34,567 nt of DNA, from contig RBNJ01000273.1 of assembly GCA_003990765.1 (NCBI GenBank), positions 1-34,567 of the forward strand, read 5' to 3'. The position numbers and the translations under genes were made by a program. The notes beneath the pieces were generated by a model that saw only the letters and a program-made list of their open reading frames with translations, ran no database searches and was not told the origin of the DNA. Source of the stretch: Jimgerdemannia flammicorona. Lineage: Eukaryota. Shown here piece after piece: positions 1 to 26,751 of the stretch (position 1 is the stretch's first letter; every line of letters begins with the position of its first letter).

Positions 1-1190
1 TTTTTTTTAATAGGCTCATAGTCTTATGGATTTTTATTAGAAGGAAACCTAGACTATATAGGCTAAAACCCTCCCCCACCACCCACTGAACAATATCCCC
101 CTATTAACCTAGACTACTAAACTGTCCAGCAGTCCCATTACTCCAGTTATGTATGCCTGTCAAATATTGGCTATATTGACTCCTACAACATAGACTAGAC
201 TTGTCTGCTTGCCAGAGCTGGATCATCATTTATATGTGAGAGCACACCTATGCATCAGATCTAGCAGTACTGAGACTGAATAAAGAATAGCCCCCCAAAC
301 CCTAAAAAAAAGCCCAAGATAAAGAAAAAAACCCCCCAACCAACCAATAGAGAGCAAAGCAGATTTAGAGTGAGTGAGTAAAAGACTTATATGCAGAACC
401 TTTCTCAAAGAACTTACACATAGGCTAGGGTCAGAAAAGACCCCACTCCTACTCCTCAAGTCTGTAGGCCTTGATCACATTGCTGTATCAGCTCCTGGTT
501 CTAGTCAGGTACAGCCAAATGAGGAAGGCTCCACTCTCTAAGCCTGTAGGCCTCAATTGTGTTGCTGCATCAGCTCTTGGTTCCAGTTGAGTACAGCCAG
601 GATGCTGGCCCCTACACCATCCCATCCCCTATCAGCCAATTGAAAGGTTCCATAAAAATATTGTCTGTCCTAGCCCCAATAACCACCCTTAGCCTGGTAC
701 TTTACTGGTTCACTATTATCACATCTGTAATGGCCATCTCCCCTCTCATCCTGACATCACCTGAAAAACAGTTACCTATGCCAGAACCATGCTTGCCAGA
801 AAGCTTGCCAAAGCCAGAGAGCCCCACTACAGATACTGAGGACCTACAGATAACCTATACTGAGCACTTGATGCCCAAGGTCAGCTGACTCTCTATATAG
901 CCTAAGATATATCAAGACAGTACCTAGTTGGCAATAGCAAAAGGAAGAAGGCACTACACCAAAATGGATGCACTCCAGATGTAGCTGAAGATATCAGAAA
1001 CTGTAAAAAAGTGGAGAAGACACTGATCTGACACTAATAAAGGGGCAACTCATCACCATTATCCTCTCCCCACCATACCCATGCAGGCACAACAAACCAA
1101 TCTGAGATAGAGGGGATAATAATAGAGGAAAGGGGACTTGGAAGGTTGTCTATCAAAACTTGTGATCAGTAAGGTAGTGGAGAAAGGAGC
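1..1190 (-). mobile_element. Poly(A)-tailed non-LTR-type retroposon (5'-truncated LINE or non-autonomous element) inserted into the 3' LTR of Gypsy element 1
   Basis: The window starts with a T run (poly-A on minus), with AATAAA on minus at ~33-38. This resembles the LINE 3' end at 18958-18993. The minus strand is G-rich like the LINE sense strand. LTR similarity stops abruptly at ~1190. No protein domain recognised. Confidence 0.45.
460..604. repeat. Diverged ~62-bp direct repeat pair (460-523 / 542-604)
   Basis: ctgtaggccttgatcacattgctgtatcagctcctggttctagtcaggtacagcca versus ctgtaggcctcaattgtgttgctgcatcagctcttggttccagttgagtacagcca. Confidence 0.7.
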
Positions 1191-1311
1191 TGTCATTTTC
1201 TGTATTGTTCATTTAATTATCATTCATATATCATACTTGATTGTATGATGATGTCATTGCCAGGTCATGTGATTGTGTATTACATCTTGTCTGTTCATTC
1301 ATTCTATTATA
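1191..1311 (-). repeat. 3' LTR remnant (U3 end) of element 1
   Basis: Ungapped match to 9544-9664 with differences mostly TG/CA transitions. Ends CTATTATA like the 5' LTR. Confidence 0.9.
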
Positions 1312-1324
1312 TTTTTCTCTCCTT
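1312..1324 (-). promoter_or_regulatory. Polypurine tract of element 1
   Basis: Minus-strand AAGGAGAGAAAAA immediately precedes the 3' LTR. Confidence 0.85.
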
Positions 1325-2149
1325 AGTAATCAATATTCTTATTGATTTGGAAATTGAGAACTAGGAGAGAGAAAGATAGAGAGTCTTTCTCAGTATTATT
1401 GCCATCTTCTTCAGTAGCAGGGGGGGTGGTTGCTGATGGCTTACTGTCTAGGATAGAGAAGTCAATGAGGTCTACAAATAGTTCTTACATTGAGATGGGT
1501 GCTGGTATAAGGGTTCTCCATCTGATGTGATTGGGACCATTCAAGTAGGGTTCTTGGTCCTTATGTCTGGAGATATCTATTTGGATAGGTGGTCCTTCAA
1601 AGAGGTCAGAGAGGCCTTGGAACCATTGGTCTGGATTGTTATTCAGAAGGAGACTCCAGTGGGGCTTGATATCAGTAGACTTGAGAGCAATCCAGGAGTT
1701 GGCTTCCTGGGCTACCATGATATCTAGCTTGTCAATCTCAGGGAAGAAGAGGTTCTAGAAATCCTTCAGTTGTATGTGATTGAGATTGGGGAATACAAAG
1801 AGTGTATGGTGTATGATTTAATAGACCTTTTTAGCAAGTCTTTGCTTGTATCTGTCCAGATGAGTCCAGTCTGAGACCTGGTCAGTGGGTAGGTTATTTA
1901 TATATTGAAGAAGCTGGTGGCTGATTTTGTATTTATACCAGATCTCTAGGCAGCTAGTAGTAAGGTTGGTTCTTCAATGAGTTCATGGTGGTTAAGGATA
2001 TATTATTCTAAGTCTGAGCTGGAGAGATTAAGGGCCTCAGAGTGGTGGTTCCTTCCTTGAATAGCAATCTGGATGTGTTAAAAAAGACAGTCAATCTGGC
2101 TTGGAAGGGGCTGGCTATGGCAGGCAGTTTAGTGGTAGATAGCAGGCAT
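1323..2149 (-). pseudogene. Degenerate accessory ORF (~275 codons, unknown function) downstream of pol in element 1
   Basis: ATG at 2149, one frameshift near 1975, and internal TAA/TAG stops. Reads MPAIYH*TACHSQPLPSQIDCLF*HIQIAIQ...LEIWYKYKISHQLL...THLDRYKQRLAKKVY*IIHHTLFVFPNL...MVAQEANSWIALKS...NNNPDQWFQGL...WRTL...LFVDLIDFS. Homologous to 20044-20861. TATAAATA on minus at 2209-2216. Confidence 0.8.
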
Positions 2150-2841
2150 TCTTGTCTTATCTTTTCTTTATGAGAAAGATAAGAGTTGCAGAATATTCTT
2201 GCCTTGGGTATTTATACTTATTCACCTATCTGGTGTGATCTTCTTTTGGTCATATTTTTTAGCAAAATATATGACCTATTGCTGTAAGTGAAGCATGTAT
2301 TAGTCATATGGGAAAAATTCTAATTTCAAAGATATCATCACTTATAGTTATGGTTACATAGGGTTACCAGGTCTTAGTCCTCTTTTTTTTTGTCTGGTTG
2401 GTACATTTGTAAGGAATAGGTAACCTTGTCTAGGGTGAGGGCTCCCATTATTGCAGCTGGAGGTTCAAATCTCTTAGAAATAAAATTTCTTATAATCTGA
2501 GGCAATTCCTAGTAACAATATCTATCATATAGATGGACTTAGATTGGTTTCGACATTATTGGCTTTCCTAAGTTTCATATGAAGTGTCTATCATCATCCA
2601 GTAAAGATGACACAGATGGTATGAAATAGAGTTGTTCAAATGCATTTTGCTATACTATACTAGATTGTTCTTCACCTAAGTGTCTTCTTGTTGATTAACT
2701 ATGATGTTTCTTTTTTTTCTACAATATTCAGTATTATATGTTTTGGATAAAATATATAGTATTCTTCTCATTTGCTATGTGCTCTAATTTTTAGAGTTAC
2801 AGTTCCTTCCTTTACTGGGAGGTAAGTATTTCCATATAGTG

Positions 2842-5800
2842 CTAGAGGGCTTTGTATATATTCTCTAAAGTTTCTTCTTTTTTCCAGATTGTGACATGGG
2901 TGGGGTAACCCTTCCACTTGATGAGGAAAAAATGCTTGACTATTCTGGGGTATTTGTAAATCTTGTGGTCAAGTACTTCCTCAATTTTGAATTCCTTATG
3001 ATCATTGATCCTAATTGGGGGTAGTGGTGGAACTATATGCTCAGGGAATGAGTTCTCATAATAGTCCACAAATTGACTGATAGAATACTGAGTATACTCA
3101 GATATTATGGGGAAGTTGTAACTTATAGTTGACTTTACTGACTTTTTCCACAATCTTGTATAGTCCAATTCTTCTAGCATGGAGTTTCTTGACTAGTTGC
3201 TGTGCCAGAGTGTTTAGGTGGAGGTGATCTGTTCTAAGCATAACTATGTCACCAATATTATAGGAGACTTCTCTTTGCTTCAAGTTTGTATACTTGGTCT
3301 GATAGTCCTGTGCTTCTATGAGAGCATCTCTTATTATTCAGATAAGGTCAGAAATGGTCTCAGCCAGATCTTGGGCTACTGAGACTGCTGATTTCACAGT
3401 AGTACTTGGAGTTCTTGGATATTGATCATAGTTCAGGAAGAATGGGATCTTTTTCATAGAGGTTTTCTGGCTATTGTTATAGGCAATCTCAGCATAGACT
3501 AGGTACTTGTCTCAATAATTCTACTTATAACAGCAGAAGATACTAAGCATCTGTTTGAGAGTTCTATTAGTTCACTCAGTTTGACTATCAGTCTGAGAGT
3601 GGTAGGTAGTAGAGAACTTCAGCTTGGTTCTATAGAGAGAGAAGAATATCTTCCAAAAGTTGCTTGTGAACTTAGCATCTTAGTTAGATACAATGGTATG
3701 AGGCATACTATATAGCCTAAAAACTTGGTTGAGGAAAATCTCAGCAATTTCTGATATAATAATGGTGGTCTTGGTGGGTGCAAAATAGGCTTATTTGCTT
3801 AGGCAGTCCATATAAATACCACAATGGTATCTCATCCTACCTTGGTCTTGGGGAGTTGAACAATAAAGTTCATTGCAATCTAATCCCAGTTATAACTTGA
3901 GATAGGCAGAGATTGCAGAAGTCCTGCTGGTAGCTTGTTGCCACTTTTGAATCTTTGGTATATCTTGCATGAGGCTATAAAGTCTTTGATGTCCTTGGTC
4001 ATCTTTGGCCAGTAGAACTCTCTTGAGAGGAGGTTGTAGGTCTTCTTAAAACCAAAGTGTCCTGCTGCAGGAGTATCATAGAGTTTCTGTATGATCTTGA
4101 GCCACAGAGTATTATTATTGGATATAACTACTCTATCATAGTTCTATAGATAAGTCCATTATGGTAAGTGAATCTCTTGGACATTTGCCTCATGAGTTCT
4201 AGGACCTTGGTCTCTGATACTTAGCAGAATTGAAGGAAATTCATCAGAGAGCTGTCCTGTTAATAACCATTCTTGATTATTTAGATAAGGTCTCCAATTA
4301 TCTTAACCATGAAGATAAGTTCATCTTCCATATATCTGGAGAAACCATCAGCCACACAGTTGGTTTTGTCTGAGATATACTTGATTTCTATATCAAAGTT
4401 GGTAATGATTTCCATTCAGCAGGCTTGTCTGTGGGTCAGTATGAGCTGTGTATGAATATACTACAAAGAATGGTGGTCAGTGTAGACCACAAATAGTTGT
4501 CCTAAGAGGAAATGGCACCATTCTTGGAGTGCAGTGACAATGGTCAGGAGTTCCTTCTCATGGGTAATATACTGGGTCTCAGCTAGCTTGAGCTTTTGGG
4601 AAAGGTAGGTCACTGGGTAATCTTCTTGACTGAGCACTACCTCAATGGCAATATCAGAAGCATCTGTGGTCAGAGTGAATGGCCTAGTAGATTCAGATAC
4701 AATTAGCACTGAGGCCTTGATAAGGAGTCTCTTGAGATGGTCTATAGCCTGGGTATATTCAGGAGTCTATTCAGTCTTGACATTTACTTCTTTGTGGGCT
4801 AGGCTGGTCAGTGGAGCTACAATAGCAAAATATCCTTAGATAAATCTTCAGTAGTAACCAGCAATACCCAGAAAGTACTAAAGTAGCATGAGGGTAGTGG
4901 GGATGGGAATATTTTTGAGGGCTAATACCTTTTGGGGGTCTATATTGATTCCTTCAGCAGAGATAATATGTCTTAGGTACTCAATCTGGTCTTAATAGAA
5001 TTTGTACTTGCTTATCTTGGTATAGAGCTGGTGTTCTCACAGAAGGGTCAGTATCTGTCTGAGGTAGGTGTAGTGTAACTCCACTGTTTTGCTATAGATT
5101 AGTATGTCATCAATATATACAAGGATACAGATGTTGAGGAGTGGTCCAAAGATATCATTCATCAGATACTGAAATATTGCTGATATATTGGTTAAACCAA
5201 AAGACATGACTCAGAACAGGTAGTATCCAAATCATATTCAGAAAGCTGTCTTTTCAATATCCTTCTCATCAATGAGGATCTGGTGGTAGCCATTTTTTAA
5301 GTCTAGCAGAAAGAAGGTCTTGACCTTGAAGATTTGGTGCAACAACTCATCAATCCTGGGCAAGACATACTGGTTCTTGATAGTGATCTTGTTGAGGGCT
5401 CTATAGTTAATATATATTCACAGAGAGTCATCCTTCTTCTTGATAAATAGAATGGGGGCTCCAAATAGAGAGCAGCTGGGTTCAATATATCCTTGGGTCA
5501 GTAGTTTGGTCAACTCATTCTTGAGGGTCTTGAGCTCAGATTGGACCAGTTGATAGATACTCTTATATGGGGGTTCAGATTCTGGAATGAGATCAATTCC
5601 ATATTAGATTTGGTACTTGGGTGGAAGTCCTTGAGGGTTCTGAAATACATCTTAGAATTCTTCAAATAGTTCTTGAGCTTCTGTTGAGATTGGACTACTT
5701 ATAGCTTCAGTGACTTCTTGTATAGTGTAGATGAAGTAGGTGTTTCTCTTTTTTCAAGAGAGTCTCTTTATTTAAATGATAGAGATAATTTTGATTTCTT

Positions 5801-6140
5801 GATAGTTGGTGCCTTCCTGGGGTATTAGGGTGATTTTTCTGCCTTCATGGGTCAGATTAACCTCATTGGTCCTTCAGTTGATATCTGGGTTGTACTGGGT
5901 CAGCCAGGCTTTTTCTAGAATAATGTCTTGTCCTGGGAGATCTACAATACTGAAGTCCAACTTCTCTTGATATTTGCCAATCTTGAGCAAGAGATCTTCA
6001 CAGATCTTGATCAGTGGTGCAGTCTTATCATCACCAAATATAACACTTCTTTTCTCAGTAGCTGGTCTGCTTTGGACTCCAATCCTCTTGGTGGTTTTGG
6101 TACTGATATAGTTTCCAGTAGCACTGCTATCAAGCAAGAC
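2842..6140 (-). pseudogene. pol: pol remnant of element 1: aspartic protease, RT, RNase H, integrase, C-terminal chromodomain
   Basis: Protease LLDSSATGNYIS (~6140). RT YIDD (~5107-5118). RNase H LTTDASDIAIEVVLSQ...HEKELL...YTDHHSL (4461-4709). GPY/F-like IGDIVML..IGLYKIVEKVSKVNYKL. Chromodomain EFKIEEVLDHK..FLIKWKGYP..IWKKEETL (2842-3000). Confidence 0.95.
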
Positions 6141-6506
6141 ATTGATATTCTGTCTGTGGACTTGATCTGTAAACTTGATGCAACTATTCTCCTTTTTGAT
6201 GGTGTTGAGCTCTTCATCTTCATTGTTGTTCCAATTGCTATCAGTCTCCTTGAAGTCAGTTTCTCCCCATTCTTTATAAGGAGAGTGGTCTTGTTTGGGT
6301 TCCTCAGTCTATTGGGCTTGGTTTCTTTCAGAATTGATATTGAAAATCTTGAAAAGACATGCTGGGCATTCACTAATATATTCTATGCAGTACATTCAGA
6401 TAGAATGAGGGCATCATCCATATAGTGCATAACTATCTGCAATTCTCTTGTACCAGTTTTCATCATCTTCCTTCATAGTAGTGACCCTTTGAGTGGAAGG
6501 TTTGTT

Positions 6507-6920
6507 GGTTGATCCAAACTCTTTCTTATCACAGTCTGTCTGGGAGAGCTCAGGGACTTCTTCAATAGTGAGATCTTAACCAATTTCTTCAATTATTGCT
6601 TGGACAATTCTTTGGCCTACTTTGACTTCAAATGAGGTATCTCCAAAATTTCACAAAATGACACAGATTTCACTAGTAAAACTTTGGTCAACTACTCCTC
6701 CTCCTAGTCTAATGTTGAACTCTTTGGCTAGGCTGCTTTGCTCAGTAAGGCAGATATATGTACCTTTGGGAGCTTATATTGTAATCTCTGTTCACACTAT
6801 AGCATTGGTACTTAGTGAAATAGTGAAGTCTTGGCTACTGTAGAGATTATATCTAGCATCAATAGGGTGGGCCTTAGTGGGGATAGTAGCCTTATACCAT
6901 ATCCTCTGTACTTTGATAAT
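6507..6920 (-). pseudogene. dut: dUTPase domain of element 1, between gag zinc knuckle and protease
   Basis: Hand translation shows all five trimeric dUTPase motifs in degenerate form: ATIPTKAHPIDARYNLYS, EQSSLAK, GGGVVDQSFTSEI, GQRIVQ, TDCDKKEFGST. Confidence 0.9.
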
Positions 6921-6989
6921 ATTCTTGGGGTTCTTCTTTTCTAGTCCTTCTCTGATAACAGTAATGTTCTAGTTACTGGGTTTGCCTGA

Positions 6990-8010
6990 TCTATTTCTCT
7001 TCTCAGGGCATTTGAATAAGATGTATCCTGCTATCTTACAGATGAAGTACAATTCTTTTTTGTGAAGCTGCTTCTTTTCATCTTCAATGAAAGGTCTAGG
7101 TCCTCTGGGGTTTTACTGGTTTTTTTGATTATTCTTTTGATCATATCTATGGCCATTCCTTTGATCATATCTATGGTCATTCCTTTGATCATTTCTCCTG
7201 ATAGGGTTCCTTCTATCCTGGTTATCCTTCTTATGTTTGGGGTTTCATGGGACCTATGTAGCAAGAATTTCGCAGGCTCTTCTTTGTACTTGGGCAAAGC
7301 ACTATAAATAGTGGAGACATCCTTGGAGAAGACCTTATTCCTTAATCTTTTAGGTGAGCCAGTCTGGTAGGGCTGCAAAGAGATGGTTGGCTCTGGTACC
7401 ATTGATGGCCAAATTGTTCTCCTAGTAGATAAGATCAATGGTTTTGAGATACATAGGTATCCATTCTAGTAGCAAAGGTCTCTAGATCTTCCTTGTCATT
7501 CTTGTGGAACTTTATCTGGGACAGTTTGTTCCAAGTTTCTTATATATAGGCTGCATTTCAGAATTTGGTCAGTAGTAATGCCTTGAGTCCAGGGTCTGCT
7601 TCATAGTCATCCCAACCTGGTCTGTTATTAGCAGGTACTTGTTCATTGACTTGAGGGCAATTTTCTCAGGTTACTGAGTGCTATTCTAAGATATACTAGA
7701 ATTCAGCTACTGTTCTAGTGAAGAATGTGGCTACTGTTTCCACTTGTATTACTGATATAGCAAACAGCTATTGAAGGGTATTGTTCTGGTTATTGGTGAG
7801 TATTTCTATAGGTACTTAGTTATCATTCTATTGATTTGCTTGGTAGTCTATATCAACTGCATTGATGAAGTTTTTGATATTGCTATTTTTTCTACTGAAT
7901 GTTGGAATTTGCAAGATCTTGGTTGGTTTGTTCTGTTCAGCAATTTGTCCTACTATCTCTGCTAGTATAGCTAGCTGGGTAGTCAGTGCTACAATATTGG
8001 CATCTACCAT
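6990..8010 (-). pseudogene. gag: gag remnant of element 1 with CCHC zinc knuckle
   Basis: ORF pieces MVDANIVALTTQLAILAEIVGQ...IPTFS. Knuckle Y(C)FICKIAGY(H)ILFKCPE at ~7008-7049. Confidence 0.8.
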
Positions 8011-8889
8011 TGTGTTGACTATTGGTGGTGGGCCTGTGGGGGTAGATTCTCCTGAAGATTGTTTTGCTTGGTGGGGTTATAGTGCTGTATAACTTGGGGT
8101 TACTTGATTCCCAGATATGTATCAGGTCAAAGAGTCCTGTGAGAGAGGGTAAACCAAATCTCTGTATAGGTGACTGGGTTAGTTCTGGGGTCTGATCTTC
8201 TTGACCTGTAGTTTCTTGATAAATTCCTAAGTATACTATTCCTTATTGACTATCATCAGACTGGTATCCTGTAGAGTTTTCATCTGACTCCTTTCTCTGA
8301 TGAGATAGTATGTCCTCATACTGACTAGGTCCTTCAAAGAGGATATTAGTTTCTGGCTAAGTAGATAAGCCTACTTTTTATTCAGTAGTAAAAGATGGGT
8401 GGCCTGCTTGCTTATTCTCATATCTGGTTATAGCAGAGGTATAGTATACAACTAGTCTGTAATAGAGTGAGATCTTGGTAGGAGTATGATGATATCTATC
8501 AGAGATAATCTACTCAGCAGCTACTTCTTTTGTAGCAGGGAGTGAGATATAATCTAGAAAATCCTAGGTGACTACAGTAGTAGATTCTGGAGTCCTAGTG
8601 GTTCCAATATGTCTACAGAGAAGTTCATAGAATCTATAGTAGCTGACTATATTCCTAAGTCCTGGGTGATAAGTTCTAAAGACCTGGTATAGATCCTTAT
8701 AAGTCTAGTCAATTACAAGCTAGTGGGTCTCTGGGTCTGTAGTTTCCTGGTACCACTTGGTCCTAATGGCAAGGGTTTCTCTGGCTCTGGTTTGGGGATT
8801 TACAGTTGTTTCTGAGGGTTACTCCTGTCTAAGGTTAGTCTTGTTCCAACTTCAGGAATGTATTCTTGATATCTTCTTGACTTGGTAAA

Positions 8890-8901
8890 CTACTGCTACC
8901 A
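8890..8901 (-). promoter_or_regulatory. Primer-binding site of element 1
   Basis: Minus strand reads LTR end + ACT + TGGTAGCAG, where TGG is complementary to tRNA CCA. Confidence 0.75.
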
Positions 8902-8904
8902 AGT

Positions 8905-9664
8905 TATAATAGCTCTCACTTCTACCCCTCTCTTATTCTTTGGATAATTAGGGAAATAAGACTATTACTTAGGGACTTAGTATACAATGTGTACCAAGAA
9001 GTCTTCAGTTTGAGGAAGCACTCACTTGAAAGTAATTATAGCAGTAGTGTCTTATCTTTCAAAGATCTTTCTCTTTTACCCTAGCTTTCAAGAGTCTTGT
9101 TCTCTGCTATATACAGACTAAATTCACCTTGGAATTCAGGTTCAATAGGTTTACTTAAGTCTTTGGGGATTTATATATCAGTCTCAGTTCTGGCAGAAGT
9201 TAGACTTCTGGAGTTTAGTCAGAAACACTAGAGTCACTTAAATGTCATTACTAAGACTCAGAGGAATGTGTGTGTATGGGAGAGACTTCAAGAACTAAAC
9301 TAAAACTGTTTTATTGCAAATGGAAACTGATAGGTATTTATACAAGTTTGTCTACAATTTCTGACTAAGTATGAGTGACTAATTTGGTAACTATAATGAG
9401 GTTTGTGATCATGACCTTTGTCAGATGGTTTTTGGCAAAAACAACTTTGTAATCAGGACCTCAATTACTAGGCAATGATTAGCTACTGTGGTAATATTTG
9501 CTATAGTGCTGATTGTCAGGGATAAACTAGATATCATTTTTTGTGTTATTTTTTGCATCATTCATTCATTTGTCATTTATATGTTATACTTAATCATATG
9601 ATGATATCATCACTAGGTCACATGATCACTTGTCATGTTTCATCTATTCATTCATTCTATTATA
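8905..9664 (-). repeat. 5' LTR of element 1 (760 bp)
   Basis: Terminal inverted repeat TATAATAG...CTATTATA (likely mutated TGTAA...TTACA). Minus-strand TATAAATA at 9335-9342 and AATAAA at 9310-9315. PBS is adjacent. Confidence 0.9.
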
Positions 9665-10130
9665 GTAGACTTATACTTATTACAATATTTAAAGCTCTTA
9701 GCTTATGCTTATTGCTCACAGGATTGTACTTAATACAATATTTGAAGCTCTTGGCTTATACTTATTGATTATAGAATTGCTGACTTATACTTATTGCTTA
9801 TCAGATTGCAGACTTATATTGTTGTAATATTCAAAGCTCTTGGCTTATACTTATTGATTATAGGATTGCTGACTTATACTTATTACTTACCAGATTACAG
9901 ACTTATATTATTGTAATATTCAAAGCTCTTGGCTTATACTTATTGATTATAGGATTGCAGACTTATATTGTTGTAATATTCAAAGCTCTTGGCTTATACT
10001 TGTTGCTCATGAGATTACTGGCTTATACTTGTTACTTGTAGAATTACAGACTTATACTTATTATAATATTTGAAGCTCTCAGCTTATGTATATTGCTTAT
10101 AGAATTGTAGACTTATGAGCTTATAAGTAT
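9665..10130. repeat. Minisatellite of alternating ~29/33-bp units (gacttatacttattgcttataggattgca / ...tgtaatattcaaagctcttggcttatac)
   Basis: Directly visible tandem repetition. It starts at the LTR edge and may be hAT subterminal repeats. Confidence 0.85.
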
Positions 10131-10494
10131 AAGTATTTCAGATATAGTAATTAAGTATATATAATATATATTCTTAAGCTTTGAATATATTTGAAGTTCT
10201 ATATATATATATTATACTATTCATACTACTTATATATCATTTATCTCTAGTGCTCTTGAGCAGATATAAGATATCTTACTTATCTCATTAGGACTGAAAA
10301 TGATAGAAATCATATTTGAATATAACAATCTGATATGTATTTAGAAATTATATTCAGATATAGTATATCTATAAGTTCTGAATCATACTTATATAATATA
10401 ATATCTGAGTGCTATATTTATTTGATATTTTGAAATATAACTATATTTTAAAATTTAGAATCAGCTATTGTTATTGAAATACTAGACTGATTAT

Positions 10495-12850
10495 CATTTC
10501 TTTAAAAACATATATTTATGAATTATTTCAGAGTCTAAAGCACCTCTTTTAGCTATTATAAGATCTTTATTACTTGAAAAAACTCTCTCAATTAAAGCAC
10601 TGGTTGCTGGGATAACTAAGTAGTTATATATATACTATTTTGCTAGACTTGGAAAATCTCCCCTATAGTCTTAATATTTTCCATCAATTAAATCAATTAG
10701 AGAAACTCAAATAATATTTTGAATTGACCTAATTTGAATATAAATTTCCAACTCACTTATCACTAAGACAATATATCAACTTCTGCTTAAAATTTAACTG
10801 TTTTACTTTTAAATAAGCATCTATCTCCTATCAGAATTTACTATCAGTTTTTGTCTTTTATTGAATATATATTCATATAGTGCAGCATTAATGTTATCTC
10901 CTACTTCTTTATGATCTTCAGAACTTATTTAATTAATCGATTCAGATAGAGGAATATAGTTTTTATTATAAACTATATAAACTTTATCTTTAGCCTCTTC
11001 AATCTAAATGTCTTCCCAATTATGTGATAAATAATATCCTAGCTTAAGTCTGAGATCAAGTACTGGGTTTCATTAAAAAATAAAATAAAATAAAATTTAA
11101 AATAAATTAATAGTTGCTAACAAGTAAATTTCACAATAGATTTATACTATTTCCAACACTAAGCAAATTTTGAAATAAATTTATGCTATCTCCAAAATCA
11201 AGCAAATTTCAAAATATTTACTTATTAGTACTAATATAATAAATTGGAGTATTTGTTATTAAATAATATATCTTCAACTTAGTACTAGCTATGGTTAGTA
11301 TCAGATAAATGATATTTCTCTCTTCTGTATATTTTTGAATTTCTTGATTGTTATCCTCCAATATATCTATTAGAAAGTTATAAATAGAAATAGTAGAATA
11401 AACCATTAGATATTTATAATGAGCTGCAAGATCTGTTACTTGTTTAAAGTACTTTAGTATACTAATAATGTCTTTTAGTATCTACCAAGTATAGTCTTCT
11501 ATAGCATATTTTTACAAATTTTTATCAGCTATAACTATTGAGATTAAATATTATTAATAGATTAATTTATTAAATTATTTGAAGAAAAAACTGTAAAATA
11601 AAAAAATTAAATATAATATAATCAGCTTTCTCTGATAATTTTAAGATCTGTTCAACTATCAAATATATTGAATTCTATTAAGTTTTAATGTCCAAAATAA
11701 GTTCTTTTAGATTGCAGACTCTAAAATCTTTATATTGAACAGTAAATCTCTCTCAAAGTTGTAGTAATGACTGGATCTTAATAATAATTAATCAGAGCTT
11801 TGAAATTATTTCTCCAAAACCATCTTTACTTACATCATCATCAGCTTTTAAATAGACTAAAAAGTCCTGAACAGTCAAATTAATAATATGAGCCAGACAG
11901 CATATATATATATTATATTAGCTAATAGTTGAGACTAATATAATTGAACTCTGTCCTAATTGTTTGAAATAATGTGGTATTGTTAGATACATTATCTATT
12001 GTTATAGCTAATATCTAGAGTAAAAAATCAATAATTTAAATATAAGATTTTTTTTTTTTTTTGAAAACCCAATCTTTTTTAAAAATTCAATCTTTTTTGA
12101 AAACCTAATCTTTTTCAAAAACCTGACCTTTTTCAAAAATCTGATCTTTTTCAAAAACCTGACCTTTTTCAAAAATCTGATCTTTTTCAAAAATCTGATC
12201 TTTTCAAAAACTCGATCTTTTTTAAAAATCTGACCTTTTTTGAAAACCCAGCTATTTTCAAAAACCTGATCTTTTTCAAAAACCAAATCTTTTTTAAAAA
12301 CCTGAACTTTTTAAAATATAATCTTTTTGAAAGACTTATTATCTATATATCTTTATCTATATATCAAAATCTCAAACATAGTTTTCAAAGACACCAGTAA
12401 GATTTTTATCTGAATGAGATTCTGACAGCTTGACAAAATCAATTAATATATAGTTGAGTTGCTAATTTTGACAAATCCAGTGTATATTAATTTTAAGAAA
12501 TATGTATATATTAGATGATATCCATATGTCAATAGTAAAGGATATTTGATCAGGTATATTCTATTTTGAAATAAATAAATTGAAATAAGAATAATTCAAA
12601 GTTATTTAACTTTGAAATATTAGAATTTATATTCAATATTAAAATATTAAATCTTATCTATAGTTTAATTTGGACAGGATAATATTTTCATTGAAAGGTC
12701 AGTCTAATTTCATTTTATATAGTTCCAGCAGAAGGAATAGTAATATCTGGTTTTAGAAGACAAAAAAGATCTCTCAGCTCTAAATTCTCAATAACTATAA
12801 AAGGCTGGCTATCATAGATAATCTAGTAAATAAGTTTGTCTTAAAATAAC
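10495..12850 (-). pseudogene. Degenerate multi-exon hAT-family transposase
   Basis: QPFIVIENLELRDLFCLLKPDITIPSAGTIK (~12720-12810). ISFTIDIW (first catalytic D, ~12520-12545). AITIDNVSNN (~11980-12008). CLAHIINL. DIKT**NS. VLDLR(LDPR). Dimerisation domain FPSLAK..YLVIPATSALIERVFS..KRGAL (10500-10670). Introns at ~11064-11221 and 12015-12350. Confidence 0.9.
12060..12330. repeat. ~18-bp tandem repeat (aaaacctgatctttttc[a]) inside a hAT intron
   Basis: About 15 visible units. They produce the spurious periodic ORF 12008-12286. Confidence 0.9.
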
Positions 12851-13174
12851 TTCACAGAGAATCTCAGCTATTTAGAGAATTATCATGTGGTAATAAATTA
12901 ATAATAAGAAAAGAAATAAAAGCAGACAAGTTATATGAAAACTATATTTTGGAAAAAAAAAAAAGACTCTATTACTTCTGTTTGATAACTCTTATAAAAT
13001 TTATCAAAATATGCCTACAAATTTGTTATTGAGTTAGTAATAGCCTTATATGATATCTTACATACCTTTCTCCTGTACAATTCATGTTATACAAACTTCA
13101 AGCAATGGTTTTCAACACAACTCAGAGAAAAGGTATTATAATAATATCATCAAGTAAGAGTTCTGATGAGCATG

Positions 13175-15130
13175 CTAGGTCAGGTGGACCTGGGGCTTTT
13201 GGCTGACAGTATGTAGGGAGAGGTTATAGACTAGGGATGGGGCTTTTGGAGGATCAAAGGGTGGCAAAGGCTCTGGAGGAGGACTAGTATATGGTGGATC
13301 TGGGGAAAGACCTGGGCCCTCCAGCTTTGCCAACAAGGTAAAGGTGAGTAGATGGCCTACTGGAACCAGAGCTGGCACTGCTGATGAGAAGGACAAGGCT
13401 AGCATCAGGAGGGGGAGTGGCCCTCAGGGGGGAGCAGTGAGTATAGGGGCTGGAGATGCTATGGCTGGAGGTGTGACTATTGATGGGAGTGTGATGGAGG
13501 ATCAGAAAAAAAAAAGAAATGTGATGGCTGATGGCCAGGTGGGGCAGGGGCTCCCAATGCAGAAGGGGGATCTGGCAGATGGTGTGACAGGGCTGGTAGT
13601 GGTGCCATTGCTCAAGAAGTTGATATCAGAGTTTGCAGCCACCTTGTGCTTTTGGGGCTTAGTGGTGATAGTGAGGATGGTCCTGGGGCTAATTTTGAAG
13701 CAGGTGGCTAGGGTGGTCACAGTGAAGTTCCTGAGGGGTCTGGAGGGGGTTGAGGTGGGCTTTGAGGAGACAGGCCCACTGGACAAGGCTCTGAAGACTA
13801 GAGTAGTGGTTGGGGAAGTGATGGTCCCCATAGTGTGGTACTTGAGATGGGACCCCAGGGTGGTATAGCTTCTGGTAAGGGGGGTGCCAATAGTGATGAA
13901 GGAGGAGACTAGGAGGAGGGTGGAGGAGGTGATGGTAGAATATGGTGATGTGGTGGACATTGGCTTCCAGATGTGGGAGGGGACCACCTTCAGGATGGGT
14001 GATGTTGATGTCAGGATTTGGCTGGCAGAGAAGGAGGCCACAGGGAAGATGAGTGACTGGCCCTCGGTGCTAATGTGGTGGGCTTTTGTCTGTAAGGTGT
14101 TGCAGGTGAAAGGGAGTGAAGAGGAGGAGGAGAACTTATTGGAGACTCTGGAGGAGTTGAGTGGTGTAGTTGAGAGGAGGACAAAGGCCTGGAGAGTGTT
14201 TGAGAAGTCAACACATCTGGAGATTATAGATGGGAAGCATATTCGCACTGACAAGAGACAGTGGGAGCAGGCACAGAGATGCAAGAGGTAGAGGGAGCTT
14301 TTGGCAAGTGTGAAAGGAGAGGTGAAGAAGAAGACAGATGGGGCTGAGGTGTCTGGGGGCATTGAAGTCAGTGTCTGGGCTAGTAAAGAAGAAGGGGAGG
14401 TGGAGGCAAGCAAGGAAGGAGCTGGGAAGATGCTGAGCAAGGACCTCTATGCAGATGGTATATTTGAGGTCTGGGAGTAGGAATTGGATACCATCTCCCC
14501 CCCCTCTTATCAGAAGGGGCCAAGCTGTGAAGAGAGGGACAACACTGGATGTACTGATACAGGGGGCCCAGTGAGTACACTTTGGGATCCCTGATGTAGT
14601 GAAAGGGGGTCAGGTGGTGGCAGTTGGCAAGGATGAGCTGGTGGATGTCCCTGAGGAGGAGTGGGATGAGGTTGCCAGTATAGGAGCTGATACTACAATG
14701 TTGGATGCAGGGCAACCAGAGACTTCAGGAGAGAAGGAGATGGGGAATCTGCTGTGGATGAGCAAGGTGATGAATAACCTTGCAGCTGAGGCATTGGGAG
14801 AAGTGGACCTACATGTGATGCCTGAGGTATATTGGGTATGAATTCTGCATGGAGATGGAGTGGTGGAGGCGTTGAAGGTGTAGATTCTTGTGATCTTCCT
14901 GGAGGAGGAGGGATATGAGGTTGACAAGGTGAGGAAGGCAGAGCTGGTGGTTGTCACTGGTGAGCAGGCAGCCTACTGTTGGGCAGAGTATCATGGTCTG
15001 CAGCTCTGGCAGGAGGCCTGTCTGGAGTATCATAAGGACTTTGAGGAAAGAGAAGATGGGGTGATGGTGGAACTTCTGGGAGGGTTGGAGGCATGAGAAG
15101 CTAGAGAAAGGGAACTAGCTGCTGAACATG
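13175..15130 (+). pseudogene. LINE ORF1 remnant
   Basis: Successive plus-strand ORF pieces (13344-13868, 13884-14291, 14599-14841, 14890-15096) lie upstream of ORF2. No motif firmly recognised. Confidence 0.65.
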
Positions 15131-15189
15131 ACTTGGACTTGGTACAGGAGGAGCCAAATGTGGACTTATAGAGGATGGGATCATTATAT

Positions 15190-18100
15190 AACATTATTTC
15201 TTATAAACAGTACAACCAACATTTTCTCTTTGAATGTGAATGGGTTAAGGGGATCTGGGCAGTGTAAGAACATTTTTACTTGGCTCAAGGGATTGGAGGC
15301 TAATCTCTTTTTACTACAGGATGTATGGTGTGAGGATGAGGATGATCGGGTGGAGTGGACTAGAGAATGGGGTGGGGCTACTGCTTGGTTTGGAAAAGTG
15401 GTGATTCTGGTGAGGAAGGGTAGAGGAGACTTGAGGGGAATCAGGAGCTGGGGTGATTGCTTGGTCTGGAGAGATTGGCATCGGCCAGGGTGGGAGTCAG
15501 TGAGGGTTGACTCTTACTACTGTCCAGCAGTTAGGGGCAAGAGAACTGCATGGATTAAGGAGTTGCTGGAGGAGGGTATTCTCTTGGAAGAAGGGGTTGA
15601 TGTTCTCAGTGGAGACTTTAATATGGTTCAGGATCAGTGTCTAGACAGAACTGATGGCAGGAGGAATGCAGGGGGGAGAAATGGAGGTCTAGATGCATGG
15701 GAGGAGGTGGAGAATTTAAGCTCCTTAGGGGATATAGACAGAATATGATAGGGCAACACCAGGGTCTATATACATTGGGTGAATGGCTTGGGTACAAGGA
15801 TTGACTGGATTCTGATGGCCAAGTGTTGGGGTTCAGATGTTTGGAAGACATTGGAGATAGAGTGGTGCCTGTGGTCTGATCACTGGGGACTATTGGGGCA
15901 GGGGCAGTTTGGGGAGAGTGGAGATGGACCCAGACATTGGTGCCTTAACTCCTCTCTACTGGCTGAGAAGAGGTTGTGGGACTCATGGGTGGAGGACATT
16001 CAGGTGAAGGTTTTTATCTGGAGATATGAGAGTTTGTCTGTGGGGATCCATTGGATGAGATTGAAAGAGGCTGCAAGGGTCTATTGCGGAGGAGCTAGTA
16101 GAGAAGCTGGGAGACAGAGGAGAAAGCACATGAGATATGCTTCTAGCAGGCTGAGGAGACTATAAATAGATTGGGCAGATTTGCTTACTTCTGATAGGGT
16201 GGAGGATTGGAGGATAGAGCAGGCAAAATTGTAGATAGTGGAACTGCAATAGGTGTTGAGAGATGAGAAGGAGACTCATATACAAGGAATAGCTACCAGG
16301 CTATGGTGGCAGGGGCTTGAGGAGGGTGAGTGGCCTACTAGGTATTTATCGAGACTCCTCAAAGCTAGGAAAGTGTGACATCGGTGAGATGGGGTCTTAG
16401 ATACCAAGGGGGATATGGTGCATGGTACACAACAAATCTTAGTGGTTTTGAAGGAGAGATGGCAGGGTTTGTAGAGTGAGGGGGAAGGGGGTGCTGATGA
16501 GGAGGTGATTGAAGATATACTAGAGGAGTGGAGGCTACCACAAGTAGCAGGACTGGGTGACTTGATCTTATCAGTGCAAGGAGAGGAGATCCAGAGTGTC
16601 CTTGTGGCAACTAAGCTTGAAACAGTGCCAGGGAAGGATGGGTTACCATGGGACTTTTGGAAGAAGATGGTAAAGGTCCCTGGAGTTTTGGGTGAGATAG
16701 CTGCTCTCTGTAACCATGTTCTTCAAAATGGTGAGTGGGTTGGAGAGCAGGACCTTGGGCTGGTGGCCTTATTATACAAAGACAAGGGGAAGAGGGAAGA
16801 CTGGAAGAATTGGAGACCAATCATGCTTCTGGATATAGACAGGAAGATGGTGACTAAAGTGATTGTTGCAAGGCTGCAGAAAGTTGCCCAACAGGTGCTG
16901 GGGGAGGAGCAGTAGGGCTTTGTTGGGGGCAGACTTATAAGGGATGAGACTGCATGGGTACATGGAGTCATTGAAGGGGCCCAGGCTTGTGGACTGGATG
17001 GAAGGTTGGTCTTTTTGGACCAAGAGAAGGTCTATGACCATGTACAGCAGATTTGGCTGGGCAAGGTGTTGGATTGGATTGATGTTCCCCCAAGATTTCA
17101 GTCTTCTATGTTGAATCTGCTAGAGAGTAGTCGGGTGGCACTAATGTGTAATGGTCACTGTGGTCTGATATTTTCCTTGAGAAGAAGAGTTCCTCAGGGG
17201 GACCCTCTATTCCCTATTCTCTATGCTCTTTCATTAGACCCCTTAATGGATAGAATTTGCTGGAAGGTGGCTGGGCTCTCTATATATGGTATAGTGTGGA
17301 AGGTGGGAGCCTTTGCTGATGACATAGTGGTTGGACTTAGGTCTGTGGCTGATGTTGAGGCACTTAAAGAGACAGTGGAATGGTATGAGGCTCACTCTGG
17401 AGTAAAGCTCAACTGGTATAAGTGTGAGACAATGGTGCTAGGGAATGGGCTAGAGAGTGGGGATATTATTGGAACAATTGTCTCTACTGGTGAGATGGTG
17501 CAGTATCTGGATATCTTTCTTTCTGTATATGGTTCTGTCTTGCCACGAGTATGGTGGGAGAGCAGGGTGACCATTTGAGGGGAGGTCCTTTGAGGTTGGG
17601 GAGACCGCCATATCTCTCTAGCAGGATGGGTGTTAATTCTGAATGTCTACTGGTTCCCCAAGCTATGGTATGTGGCCTATCACCTAGACTTCCCAGCTTA
17701 GGTGATGAAGAGGCTGACAAAGGTGGCTAAAGATTAGATTTGGGCAGAGAGGTGGTCCCAAATTAGTTGGAATACTCTTGCAACACTAGTGGTCAGGGCC
17801 TTGTGGATTTCTCTAAGAGGTTGCACTGCTTGTGAGTCTGGTGGTTAAAGAGAGCTGTGGAACTACAGGGAGGGGATTGGGTGCCACTGCTGCAGAAGGT
17901 ATAGGAGATGAGGACCTCTCCTCGAGGGTTCTTGGGAGATCTGCTCTCTTTGATGGGGCTGAATGGAAATTGGTGGCTACAGTTTGAGGGCTTTTGGTGG
18001 GGAGTGGTAGATGGAGCACACTGAATTGGCCTGTGCTGGCAAGGCAATGAGGGGGAGGTGATGTGGGGACCAGATATGTGGCAATAGGATAGACTGCTCC

Positions 18101-18900
18101 TGGGGGGTACTTCACTTGCTGAGTTTAATATTGGAGATAGAGTAGAGTATCAGCAGGGTCTTGGCCAGGATCTTTGGCCAAGTAGCTGGTAGGTGGCAGA
18201 AATCAGCGAGGAGTGAGACTGGGCAAGTATCTGGTCTTGGAGTGCTGAGGTGCAGAGGTGGCTTCCTCCCAAGTTCTGGGTGATATGGTGGTGAATGCTG
18301 TGGAGGAATGTCATGTTGAATTTCCACACTGGGTATCTGGTGGATGGTGGCCATTTCAATTGTGAGGAGTGTTACAATGTAGGACAAGCTGGATGACTTG
18401 TATAGACACCAGAACATTGGTTGGGAGAGTGTGAGATTTTGGGGGACTTTTGGATAGAAATAGGGAATAGACTGGGTATGGAGTGAAGGCTGGCAGGTGG
18501 GGGAGGCCACTGGGAGGACTTGAGATCCTGAATAGACTGGGTATGGAGTGAAGGCTGGCAGGTGGGGGAGGCCACTGGGAGGACTTGAGATCCTGGCTAG
18601 TAGGTGGTGTGGGTAATAGTTGTCTCACTGTAGGGTGAATGTTAGCAGTATGGGTGGGACTGGCTGACCATTGGTTTTTTGTATTTGAGGAGGGGTAGTA
18701 GGTGAGGCTGTAGAAGAAGATATTATGATGAGAGGAGCTATTGGGGGATCTGCTAACTAGATGGTGGGTGGCCTGAGGTCCTCAGGGGGGGCAATGTCAC
18801 AGTTTGGTGGCAAGGATCTGTGAGCAAAGTAGTGGGAGGGTAGAGATAGTGTTAGGCAAAGTGGTCTTATAATGGAACAGGTTGGGGGGTGGACCCCCCA
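15190..18900 (+). pseudogene. LINE ORF2 remnant: apurinic endonuclease and reverse transcriptase
   Basis: Endonuclease: IFSLNVNGLR..LLQD, SGDFN, TRIDWIL, WSDH. RT: PGKDGLP, WRPIMLLDIDRK, FLDQEKVYDHV, VPQGDPLFPILY, AFADD, KLNWYK. Confidence 0.93.
18466..18595. repeat. Perfect 65-bp tandem duplication in LINE ORF2
   Basis: aatagactgggtatggagtgaaggctggcaggtgggggaggccactgggaggacttgagatcctg occurs twice (18466-18530, 18531-18595). Confidence 0.95.
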
Positions 18901-19542
18901 GGGGGATCGGATAGGGGTGGGGGTCAATGTAATATTATGGGATTAGATTGGGGTATTAATAAAGGAGTTCAAGAGACTATAAAAAAAAAAAAAGAAATTT
19001 TATCTTATAGATCCAACAGAAGGTCTAGTAAACTAGACATATATTCTTATTCTCAATAAGAGTAGAAATGGGGCAGGAGACCTTAGTAGTAATATTAGGA
19101 GTGTATTTCTTTATCATATCTGCTATCAGGATTATTTTGACTAACTAGTCATTTATACTGTTGTAAAAACTGATAATTACTCAGCATTTGACAAAATTGC
19201 TCACCATTTACCAGAATATATATAATGCCAACAGTATATATATCTTTTTATCATATAATATCTATAATTTGATAGAATTATAGAAATCTAGAAATACCAA
19301 CTCCTATATAAGAGAAGCTATATTCTATCTACTAGACTTATTCTTAAAAGGAGGAGAATATATATTTATAGCATCTCAAATAAACTACAAAATAGATAGA
19401 AGGGTCAAAAAATAAGTACCATATACTATATATATATATCTACTGTCTGATAGCTATATAGATACTATAAAGTTAGTAAATACTCATTCTTTCTTAGAAG
19501 AGCTGAGCCAGATAGTTGATCTATTATTTAGTAGATATATAT

Positions 19543-20861: not shown

Positions 20862-21434
20862 TTTATTTATAATAAATCTTTGGAACTATTTCTGTAAGCT
20901 TTGTTTGAATTACTGCTACTGTGGGTTCTTGATTCTTCTTTTATATTTCTCAAAATATCTGTCTTATGGTTACAATGACTCATAGTTGGTCATCATTGCT
21001 CATCTTATAGCCTGGATGAATTATACTATATGATCTTCTTATACTCTGATCTGATAGCTTGTAAGGAAAGACTGTCTTCTATACTAATGTTATCTTTCTT
21101 CTGAATAAGAATCTCCTTTTGAATATTCTTATTCATTAGTTCAGTTCTGAAAAATTTGCTGATCCCATAACCTCTGGTAGAGAGTCAAAAAGTGGTGTTT
21201 ATGGGCTGATATCTTCTTTATGTATTTTGGCATGATGGTGAAGAGTTGCTCTCTTTATATAGAGCAAGGACCTAATTCTGATCTTGACCAATCAGTTGAT
21301 AGTTCAAACTCCTCTGGCTTTAAAAGTCTCTGATGCTATATTCCTTAGAGAATGGTCTAGATAGATTGCCTACTAATCATAGAACATACTGTTATAATTC
21401 ATGAACTAGAACCTCACAGGCAGTCATCATGTTT

Positions 21435-26695: not shown

Positions 26696-26734
26696 TTTTC
26701 AGCTTGAAAGTGAGGAATTCATCTTGAATCACCA

Positions 26735-26748: not shown

Positions 26749-26751
26749 AGT

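Follow-up and report, generated by a model that had tools for sequence, protein, structure and literature searches.

A decayed third open reading frame between pol and the 3' LTR of two Ty3/Gypsy retrotransposons in Jimgerdemannia flammicorona

Does the region from 1323 to 2149, on the reverse strand of a 34,567-nucleotide stretch of Jimgerdemannia flammicorona DNA (the window), hold the remnant of a real gene, and if so, of what kind? The region follows pol and precedes the 3' LTR in a retrotransposon, and its open reading frame, here called ORF3, is broken by stop codons. Extra genes of LTR retrotransposons are raw material for retroviral envelopes and regulators, and we know of almost none beyond the env-like genes with a known function. 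The original prediction saw in ORF3 a conserved, possibly undescribed accessory gene which is shared by two different Gypsy lineages.

Carrier elements and ORF3 copies in the window

Both carriers, designated E1 and E2, lie on the reverse strand and, judged by their pol domains and LTR pairs and by a polypurine tract that is clear in E1, are Ty3/Gypsy LTR retrotransposons. In E1 the alignable parts of the 5' LTR (9544 to 9664) and the 3' LTR (1191 to 1311) share 74% identity, and the polypurine tract GGAGAGAAAAA (1312 to 1322) directly follows the ORF3 stop codon, with the LTR running from 1311 downward. A dUTPase (6507 to 6893; PF00692, E 5.6e-21) is situated upstream of the protease (PR; about 6206 to 5901; RVP_2, E 0.0073), which is followed by the reverse transcriptase (RT; 5444 to 4971; RVT_1, 8e-25), RNase H (4766 to 4395; RT_RNaseH, 2e-24) and the zinc-binding domain of the integrase (4113 to 3943; Integrase_H2C2, 4e-19). 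The E1 pol also contains an SH3_Tf2-1 match and ends with a chromodomain (2836 to 2991; PF00385, E 7.5e-6), which is separated from ORF3 by a spacer of about 690 nt that is not conserved and has no Pfam match. E2 has its 3' LTR at 19542 to 19975, with the upstream boundary between 19975 and 20043, and its 5' LTR at 26751 to 27166, which is common to a truncated copy located upstream. Its protease (about 24815 to 24546) is followed by a dUTPase (24172 to 24516), the RT (23749 to 23297; RVT_1), RT_RNaseH and a weak rve match, and no clear polypurine tract is visible. A BTB-SPRY gene (32987 to 34279) flanks the elements. As predicted, the two elements differ in three respects: a chromodomain is found only in E1, with no match even at E<=1 in the heavily decayed E2; the dUTPase order is gag-dUTPase-PR in E1 and PR-dUTPase-RT in E2; and the two gags give no alignment at E<=0.01.

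All three ORF3 copies in the window are pseudogenes on the reverse strand, with three to eight premature stops and one frameshift each. The E1 copy (1323 to 2149) reads from an ATG at 2149-2147 to a terminal TAA at 1325-1323 and carries six premature stops (2131, 2080, 2005, 1820, 1757 and 1487) as well as a frameshift near 1973. The E2 copy (20044 to 20864, terminal TAA at 20046-20044) has lost its start codon and has eight premature stops and a frameshift near 20585, and the third copy (27235 to 27734), which is 5'-truncated, has three premature stops and is frameshifted once, at 27588. Since the latter is 85.6% identical to E2 at the DNA level over 977 bp, extending through the LTR, it represents the 3' end of an adjacent E2-family element, and the third partial copy of the original prediction is thus present but does not represent a separate lineage. 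Searches by tblastn with six intact relatives as queries located the E2 copy at about 20849 to 20047 and the third copy at 27698 to 27238, and revealed no further ORF3 copy in the window.

The similarity claimed between the ORF3 regions of E1 and E2 is genuine and specific to one reading frame. A single frame pair reaches a BLOSUM62 local score of 183 whereas the other 35 of the 36 pairs score at most 68, and 300 shuffled sequences gave a mean of 34.4 (sd 4.9) and a maximum of 54. The peptide strings quoted in the original prediction are present in the window translations, and its hand count of about 35 identical residues in 96 is replaced by a computed 45 of 131 aligned; a separate tblastn comparison inside the window reaches E 3.5e-11. 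The N-terminal blocks are weaker yet likewise exceed their shuffles (53 versus 27.8±3.5 and 47 versus 27.4±4.3, 100 shuffles each). Comparing the decayed copies of both, the ORF3 core of E1 and E2 is 33.6% identical over 134 aa and the RT 31.5% over 352 aa. As the divergence of ORF3 resembles that of RT, vertical inheritance within one clade bearing dUTPase and ORF3 fits at least as well as exchange, and of the predicted two different lineages the difference in architecture holds, while the divergence is at least as compatible with a single clade.

The window copies were destroyed by C-to-T and G-to-A transitions. The observed/expected ratio of CpG is 0.00-0.01 in E1 and E2 and 0.00-0.09 across the repeats, against 1.07 in the neighbouring gene, and in the comparison of E1 with L001, an intact relative introduced below, C>T (42) and G>A (40) substitutions exceed T>C (22) and A>G (15). 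Between E2 and the third copy, transitions make up 56 of the 58 differences in the larger piece, and codons with a single difference comprise 20 synonymous and 22 non-synonymous cases; because these differences represent decay after duplication, selection was not judged from this pair. An alternative genetic code was weighed as well, the ORF3 stops coinciding with Gln or Trp of intact relatives, and transition decay is preferred. The stops in RT fall at positions which we take to be usually Arg in Gypsy RTs. A stop that E1 (2080) and E2 (20792) share after a phenylalanine is a coincidence, as the relatives hold Gln (E2-like) or Arg, Gly or Ser (E1-like) there.

Relatives outside the window and features of the protein

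A profile of the window copies gave four matches among 1,835,955,588 representative library proteins (E 5.8e-57 to 2.7e-31). A word-based search yielded seven proteins with E<=0.001 among 2891 candidates, and none among 220 candidates when the decayed E1 copy served as query. Cluster members included, ten database proteins (P0001-P0010) were obtained from metagenome contigs of 778-4848 bp, P0003 being encoded on the contig of 4848 bp, and the family members are annotated as 'hypothetical protein' only. Scanning metagenome contigs led from 338 pattern matches to one locus, L001, whereas none of 80 pattern matches in viral contigs encodes a relative. L001 contains an intact ORF of 291 codons (376-1251), followed by TAA, GGAGGGAGGA and the start of an LTR, which is the layout of E1; it is the one contig on which transposon context is seen outside the window, and its ORF is the only intact relative that was viewed as DNA. 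The intact proteins match the window in tblastn with E 1e-60 (E1), 2e-64 (E2) and 2e-41 (third copy); E1 matches the L001 ORF with 44% identity over 219 aa and 53% over 62 aa (E 1.2e-60), and E2 matches P0007 with 54-61% identity (E 2.4e-64). The two subfamilies are homologous to each other (hhalign probability 100, E 1.1e-46, 46% identity over 207 columns). Fusion of ORF3 to pol was found in none of 6129 longer candidates, which is weak evidence.

The arrangement of ORF3 recurs: a position after pol, an own start and an end near the 3' LTR are common to E1, E2, the third copy and L001. Its own ATG follows a non-conserved spacer 3' of pol, and it ends at the polypurine tract in E1 and L001 and within about 70 nt of the LTR in E2. 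L001 and E1 differ at 79, 52 and 106 first, second and third codon positions, respectively, and codons with a single-base difference comprise 39 synonymous and 41 non-synonymous cases. The distribution over codon positions suggests that ORF3 was under selection in the past, and we regard it as very probable that ORF3 is a real, selected accessory gene of the element. The central claim of the original prediction, a conserved retrotransposon accessory gene unrecognised by the databases, is thereby upheld by the similarity in a single frame, the intact relatives, which are labelled 'hypothetical protein' only, and the missing Pfam and PDB matches described below. While an ORF3 of LTR retrotransposons is a known category, the proteins described here form a new family in it, and no description of this family was found in the literature compared, including passages of PMC2864245. 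As neither gene callers nor Pfam at present go beyond 'hypothetical' for these ORFs, the family profile (alignments A4/A5) can serve as a marker for the ORF3-bearing clade.

The proteins comprise about 250-340 residues (ORFs of 247-342 in the relatives) and start with MPA or MPP in four of four full-length sequences. They are acidic, with a pI of 4.1-4.9, and have a basic, arginine-rich N-terminus with a net charge of +2 to +6 per 20-residue window wherever it is retained (four sequences). The core is marked by the motifs LEIWxEYEI, AKKIHQVFRHAP and WxPILxDNPDQ(F/W)LQGL followed by FxGPxI, and the acidic tail by two conserved hydrophobic motifs, DLIxF(S/E) and (V/I)LN(F/I)L. Two separate models agree at low confidence and suggest a mostly helical protein, the gap-rich, low-confidence tail of which is probably disordered; since the AlphaFold models are poor (pLDDT 44.4 and 49.1), helicity and disorder are weak statements. 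No known fold or described env family was matched in the structural comparison that had been proposed as a check, for which the model is weak. Pfam gave no significant match for the three window copies and four intact proteins, ATG5_HBR being noise (E 0.09-0.13, 13 bits against a cut-off of 21.3), and a sequence profile search of the PDB gave no match at E<=10. Foldseek, with a low-confidence query model, gave none at E<=0.001 in PDB and BFVD, and in the ESM Atlas, the own model of which has a pLDDT of 0.35, the best feature score was 0.83, below the bar of 0.9, with all TM-scores <0.5.

Expression and possible role of ORF3

A TATA-like box precedes ORF3 in each upstream region. In E1 the box TATAAATA (2209 to 2216, reverse strand), a candidate internal promoter element, had been seen by the original prediction, although it lies 67 nt upstream of the ATG instead of about 60. 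In E2, TATAAAAG is found at 20938 to 20945 on the same strand, 81 nt upstream of the former start, and in L001 a TATAAAAG box at -80 is the only TATAWA in 1535 nt. The joint chance of TATAWA at -67, -81 and -80 in three of three upstream regions is about 1e-4 for a 31-nt search window, which was picked after the data had been seen, and the AT-rich decayed copies contain 0.19-0.35 such hexamers per 100 nt. Beyond the TATA motif, alignments of the upstream regions show nothing alignable that is conserved. An ORF3 transcript would start downstream of this box, which itself lies 67-81 nt before the ATG, and end in the 3' LTR; we hold such an own transcript from an internal promoter to be plausible, if just short of probable, and an mRNA that starts at the LTR promoter and is spliced is no less possible.

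On balance, we lean slightly towards reading the region 1323 to 2149 as a dead copy of a true third gene that had its own transcript and a regulatory or adaptor product. The protein would be a soluble factor acting for the element, e.g. a transactivator or an RNA-handling protein, the basic N-terminus of which may bind nucleic acid or direct nuclear import, whereas the acidic tail may recruit a host partner. The tail could be an activation domain, a SUMO-interaction motif or a clathrin-box-like motif, which we presume from pattern resemblance. The regulatory or adaptor role itself is a tentative assignment. It is possible, though doubtful, that with ORF3 a regulatory gene is seen for the first time in a (probably fungal) LTR retrotransposon; like foamy-virus Tas, it would encode a small nuclear protein that is expressed from an internal TATA promoter and either activates the very short LTR of its own element or exports the element's RNA or shields it from the repeat silencing of the host. 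If so, gene regulation of the kind seen in complex retroviruses would have arisen independently in a dUTPase-bearing Ty3/Gypsy clade.

Other roles have to be weighed against this one. ORF3 could have been a counter-defence factor that blunts RNAi or DNA and histone methylation by binding a silencing component through its acidic tail. The host attacks repeats efficiently, as the contrast in CpG between the repeats and the neighbouring gene illustrates, and the tail motif of P0008 consists of hydrophobic residues and subsequent runs of Ser, Asp and Glu, which we take to resemble the SUMO-interaction motifs of viral anti-silencing proteins. However, neither Pfam nor the PDB gives homology to a known suppressor and the copies in the window were silenced and destroyed anyway, and we consider this role rather unlikely. 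Also unlikely is a structural or chaperone function within the virus-like particle or the reverse-transcription complex, e.g. as a nucleic-acid chaperone. The positively charged N-terminus, the conserved and predicted helical core and the co-divergence with pol at a similar rate would suit it. Against it stand the strongly acidic character of the protein as a whole, the missing zinc knuckle, the lack of any match to gag in the window at E<=1 and the gag that both elements already possess.

It is still less probable that ORF3 is a captured host gene, a passenger of no use to the element, or was exchanged horizontally between unrelated Gypsy lineages. No host-gene homologue was found among the 1.84 billion representative proteins, position, start codon and near-LTR end are kept in both subfamilies and L001, and the parallel divergence of ORF3 and RT is what joint descent predicts, against which stand the different chromodomain, dUTPase order and gag of the two elements and the ORF3 types that, according to PMC5408684, are common to unrelated retroelements of bdelloid rotifers. 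Highly improbable is an envelope-like protein, or one that acts on membranes, of the kind found in errantiviruses and Athila, with which ORF3 shares the position between pol and 3' LTR. Env-like ORF3 proteins are characterised by a signal peptide and at least one transmembrane segment. As the original prediction had stated, ORF3 has neither: the Kyte-Doolittle mean over 19 residues peaks at 0.48-0.74 in five sequences, and the N-termini are basic and hydrophilic. Since there is no membrane segment, ORF3 is not env-like, and no envelope family is among the Pfam matches. Nor did the PDB profile search or Foldseek, the latter with its low-confidence query model, point to a viral fusion glycoprotein. 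That the region is no gene at all, but chance or a conserved cis-acting nucleic-acid region, can practically be dismissed, since the stops that riddle all three window copies are outweighed by the one high-scoring frame pair, the intact ORFs of the relatives and the excess of differences at third codon positions.

With the reading as a true third gene, ORF3 represents a clean non-envelope case that was kept under selection across two lineages whose RTs, in the copies analysed here, share no more than about 31% identity. Moreover, the ORF copies from environmental contigs make the question of function approachable in a host that destroys its repeats.

Comparison with known systems

The errantiviruses, such as Drosophila gypsy, and the plant Athila/Tat elements resemble E1 and E2 in having a third ORF between integrase and 3' LTR, whereas the protein described here is acidic and soluble and differs from their env-like products in having no signal peptide, transmembrane segment or Pfam envelope match. 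Foamy viruses encode Tas/Bel1, an accessory gene with an internal promoter. ORF3 shares with it the 3'-proximal location, a candidate internal promoter, a size near 300 residues and an acidic C-terminal region, but no sequence or fold similarity was detected (Pfam, PDB, Foldseek); furthermore, Tas/Bel1 is carried by a spumavirus and ORF3 by a retrotransposon, in which promoter activity and transactivation are putative.

Among retrotransposons, PMC2864245 describes the extra env-like ORF of Athila as well as Gypsy elements of Postia placenta in which the dUTPase is either N-terminal in pol or placed between PR and RT. The two arrangements of these fungal chromodomain Gypsy elements match the layouts of E1 and E2, and some fungal chromoviruses are drawn with an 'add. 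ORF' of unknown function (PMC2864245). The dUTPase-bearing LTR elements of bdelloid rotifers carry varied ORF3s, some of them common to different retroelement lineages, and according to PMC5408684 these are GDSL esterases, DEDDy exonucleases or env-like, whereas our ORF3 matches no Pfam family. A lineage-restricted accessory protein which, like ORF3, is not an envelope is CERV of Cer1, a Ty3/Gypsy-type element of C. elegans. According to PMC10309623, homologues of CERV are confined to its host group, and the protein, which bears candidate signals for nuclear localisation and export, is required for genomic RNA export. The profile search with the window copies gave metagenomic proteins only. 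Compared by description, CERV is larger (517 aa), has a G-protein-like domain and is translated from a five-exon spliced mRNA sharing its first exons with gag (PMC10309623), whereas ORF3 has 250-340 aa and its own ATG and is located after pol. For a regulatory ORF of this kind, CERV would be the best precedent in terms of function.

Two minus-strand retrotransposons and their surroundings

The window is repeat-rich, and both of its LTR retrotransposons, the decayed Ty3/Gypsy elements E1 and E2, lie on the minus strand. E1 (about 1191-9664) has the domain order gag, dUTPase (6893-6507, E 5.6e-21), protease, RT, RNase H, integrase, SH3-like domain and chromodomain (2991-2836, E 7.5e-6), and its alignable LTRs (1191-1311 and 9544-9664, 74% identity) measure only about 121 bp. 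E2 (about 19542-27166) is ordered gag, protease, dUTPase (24516-24172, E 4.6e-19), RT, RNase H and integrase, with no chromodomain detectable even at E<=1, in agreement with the originally noted differences in chromodomain presence and dUTPase position. In E1 dUTPase precedes protease (5901-6893), whereas in E2 it follows protease (24172-24815); each of the two domains is nonetheless homologous across the elements at about 30% identity. The same two layouts, with dUTPase at the pol N-terminus or between protease and RT, occur in Gypsy families of Postia placenta described in PMC2864245, a parallel that hints at a host among the fungi, perhaps one resembling basidiomycetes.

The region 1-1190 flanking E1 (GC 0.44, negative GC skew, CpG observed/expected 0.00) has a single open frame reaching 100 codons (550-888, plus strand), for which Pfam gave no match; this flank is most likely a further decayed repeat. 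The block 9665-13000 has a very low GC (0.23) and contains a hAT transposase dimerisation-domain remnant (minus strand, E 0.0014) as well as tandem-repeat arrays at 9692-10056 (29/60-nt period) and 12022-12355 (13 copies, 18-nt period). A decayed non-LTR (LINE-type) retrotransposon occupies 13000-19000 on the plus strand, with an endonuclease/exonuclease/phosphatase domain (15119-15748, plus strand, E 6.7e-4), RVT_1 (16916-17578, plus strand, E 3e-12), a GC of 0.48-0.52, a CpG observed/expected ratio of 0.05 and an unusually strong GC skew of +0.32 to +0.52. A BTB+SPRY gene of 430 aa (32987-34279, plus strand; SPRY 4e-9, BTB 8e-7) has a partial tandem duplicate about 1.95 kb upstream (31307-32027 versus 33259-34000, 79-81%).

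The ORF3 gene and its relatives

Both elements carry an ORF between integrase and the 3' LTR on the minus strand (ORF3; 1323-2149 in E1, 20044-20864 in E2), as the original prediction had proposed from peptide strings that are indeed present in the translations. In a local BLOSUM62 comparison of the two post-integrase regions one frame pair scores 183, with 45 of 131 aligned residues identical, whereas the other 35 of the 36 pairs stay at or below 68 and 300 shuffles give 34.4±4.9 with a maximum of 54; the N-terminal blocks are less similar, yet exceed shuffles as well. The similarity is thus genuine and confined to one reading frame. A third partial copy was also correctly noted (27235-27734), but it does not add a third lineage: since it shares 85.6% DNA identity with E2 over 977 bp extending through the LTR, it belongs to an adjacent E2-family copy, of which it forms the 3' end. 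From 19542 to 27734 a partial ORF3, an LTR, the full E2 and an LTR are found, one LTR being common to both copies, as in a tandem or recombinant array.

A profile of the window copies with stops read as X (alignment A3) found only four matches among 1,835,955,588 representative proteins (E 5.8e-57 to 2.7e-31), and a word-based search with an alignment of these four and their cluster members retained seven of 2891 candidate proteins at E<=0.001. In total ten database proteins (P0001-P0010), located on metagenome contigs of 778-4848 bp, belong to the family; they are annotated without a name or as 'hypothetical protein', with no precomputed Pfam domain in any of them. Profile comparison leaves no doubt that the E1-like subfamily (P0002, P0003, P0006) and the E2-like subfamily (P0001, P0004, P0005, P0007-P0010) are homologous (hhalign probability 100, E 1.1e-46, 46% identity over 207 columns). 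Six intact proteins searched back against the window match exactly three loci and no others, namely ORF3 of E1 (2149-1326, E 1e-60), of E2 (20849-20047, E 2e-64) and of the third copy (27698-27238, E 2e-41), all on the minus strand.

The DNA context of these relatives rests on one metagenome contig, L001 (1535 bp; CpG observed/expected 0.50), with an intact ORF3 of 291 codons (376-1251), 66% identical to that of E1. Its stop is followed by the tract GGAGGGAGGA and then the LTR start, an order also present in E1 (TAA at 1325-1323, GGAGAGAAAAA at 1322-1312, LTR from 1311), so that ORF3 terminates at the polypurine tract in both. All four full-length sequences start with MPA or MPP. Upstream of ORF3, E1 has a spacer of about 690 nt that gave no Pfam match, and the spacers of E1, E2 and L001 do not align with each other; a fusion of ORF3 to pol was found in none of 6129 longer candidates, which is weak evidence. 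ORF3 is thus a genuine gene of these elements with its own start, and that the region is not a gene is extremely improbable. The LTR of L001 (at least 274 bp, 1262-1535) resembles that of E1 only in the first few bases. An antisense open frame of 168 codons (922-1428, minus strand), overlapping the C-terminal part of ORF3 and the LTR start of L001, is probably a side effect of the sense frame.

Decay, selection and descent

All three window copies are pseudogenes. Six premature stops and a frameshift near 1973 interrupt E1; in E2 the ATG is lost, and eight premature stops are joined by a frameshift near 20585; the third copy lacks its 5' part and is broken by three premature stops and a frameshift at 27588. 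The premature stops are all TAA or TAG at Gln or Trp positions of intact relatives, changes from L001 to E1 are rich in C>T (42) and G>A (40) compared with T>C (22) and A>G (15), and CpG observed/expected is 0.00-0.01 in E1 and E2 and 0.00-0.09 across all window repeats, but 1.07 in the neighbouring BTB-SPRY gene. The damage is therefore transition decay directed at repeats, and an alternative genetic code was rejected on the same grounds. The sharp two-state CpG contrast points to cytosine methylation and deamination directed against repeats, or to a RIP-like process.

Between L001 and E1, ORF3 differs at 79, 52 and 106 first, second and third codon positions, respectively. Codons with a single differing base comprise 39 synonymous and 41 non-synonymous changes, a synonymous share far above the expectation for unconstrained sequence despite the later decay. 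ORF3 is very probably a real accessory gene under selection. Between the decayed E1 and E2, identity is 33.6% over 134 residues in the ORF3 core and 31.5% over 352 in RT (RNase H 28.5%, dUTPase 30%, protease 29%, integrase 29%), so that ORF3 has diverged about as much as pol. We read this as joint descent of ORF3 and pol within one putative clade bearing dUTPase and ORF3, which would later have rearranged its dUTPase/protease order and gained or lost the chromodomain; an exchange of ORF3 between unrelated lineages is rather unlikely.

Possible function and comparison with known systems

The protein has 250-340 residues and a pI of 4.1-4.9. As originally stated, it has no signal peptide or membrane segment, because 19-residue hydropathy peaks at 0.48-0.74 across the five sequences analysed. 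The four sequences that retain the N-terminus show it to be basic, with a net charge of +2 to +6 per 20 residues; in the E2-like subfamily it is arginine-rich. The core contains the conserved motifs LEIWxEYEI, AKKIHQVFRHAP, IPN(L/I)xYVRV, LExxVAxEAxS and WxPILxDNPDQ(F/W)LQGL followed by FxGPxI, and the acidic, gap-rich tail has two conserved hydrophobic motifs, DLIxF(S/E) and (V/I)LN(F/I)L; by its pattern the tail may resemble an acidic activation domain or motifs of the SUMO-interaction or clathrin-box-like kind. No Cys/His cluster or catalytic-looking motif was found in the protein, and Pfam, PDB sequence profile and ESM Atlas searches gave nothing usable. Two AlphaFold2 runs of low confidence, one per subfamily (mean pLDDT 44.4 and 49.1), agree in predicting a largely helical protein that has a short hairpin close to its C-terminus; that Foldseek gave no match at E<=0.001 in PDB or BFVD is expected from such models.

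A TATAWA box lies 67 nt (TATAAATA), 81 nt and 80 nt (both TATAAAAG) upstream of the ORF3 ATG in E1, E2 and L001, respectively, the E1 box thus being present but farther away than the roughly 60 bp first given. The box at -80 is the sole such hexamer in the 1535 nt of L001, and the joint chance of three boxes within a 31-nt window, set post hoc, is ~1e-4 from hexamer densities; their flanks do not align. The boxes hint at an internal promoter, from which a subgenomic transcript with its end in the 3' LTR would arise. Whether ORF3 has its own transcript of this kind is a slightly less than even call, and a spliced mRNA starting in the 5' LTR is possible as well.

The solubility and acidity of the protein, its basic N-terminus, its acidic tail with conserved motifs, its retention for as long as pol and perhaps a promoter of its own together point to a regulatory or adaptor role, for which, counter-defence included, we see about an even chance. 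ORF3 would then act, for example, as a transactivator, RNA-handling factor or counter-silencing factor. Within this role, regulation of the element's own expression or RNA is a tentative candidate, and a counter-defence function is unlikely. A structural or chaperone role is distinctly unlikely, and a passenger or horizontally exchanged gene is improbable.

Elements with an additional ORF between pol and the 3' LTR are already known, the env-like genes of errantiviruses and Athila being examples. ORF3 differs from these, as it lacks signal peptide and membrane segment and tests for env membership came out negative, which makes an env-like nature extremely improbable. Varied ORF3s are described for bdelloid elements in PMC5408684, and PMC2864245 has some fungal chromoviruses drawn with an 'add. 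ORF' lacking assigned function. No description of the family was found in the literature covered, though the drawings of PMC2864245 may already depict it. With intact relatives, no named family and no match to any described ORF3 type, the original observation is confirmed and the predicted conserved, possibly undescribed accessory gene supported, and ORF3 is a new protein family within a known category. It is dead in the window and alive elsewhere, and the regulatory reading is testable. A precedent for such a regulatory accessory protein is CERV of Cer1, which, according to PMC10309623, is lineage-specific and required for genomic RNA export. The second precedent is foamy-virus Tas, with its internal promoter.
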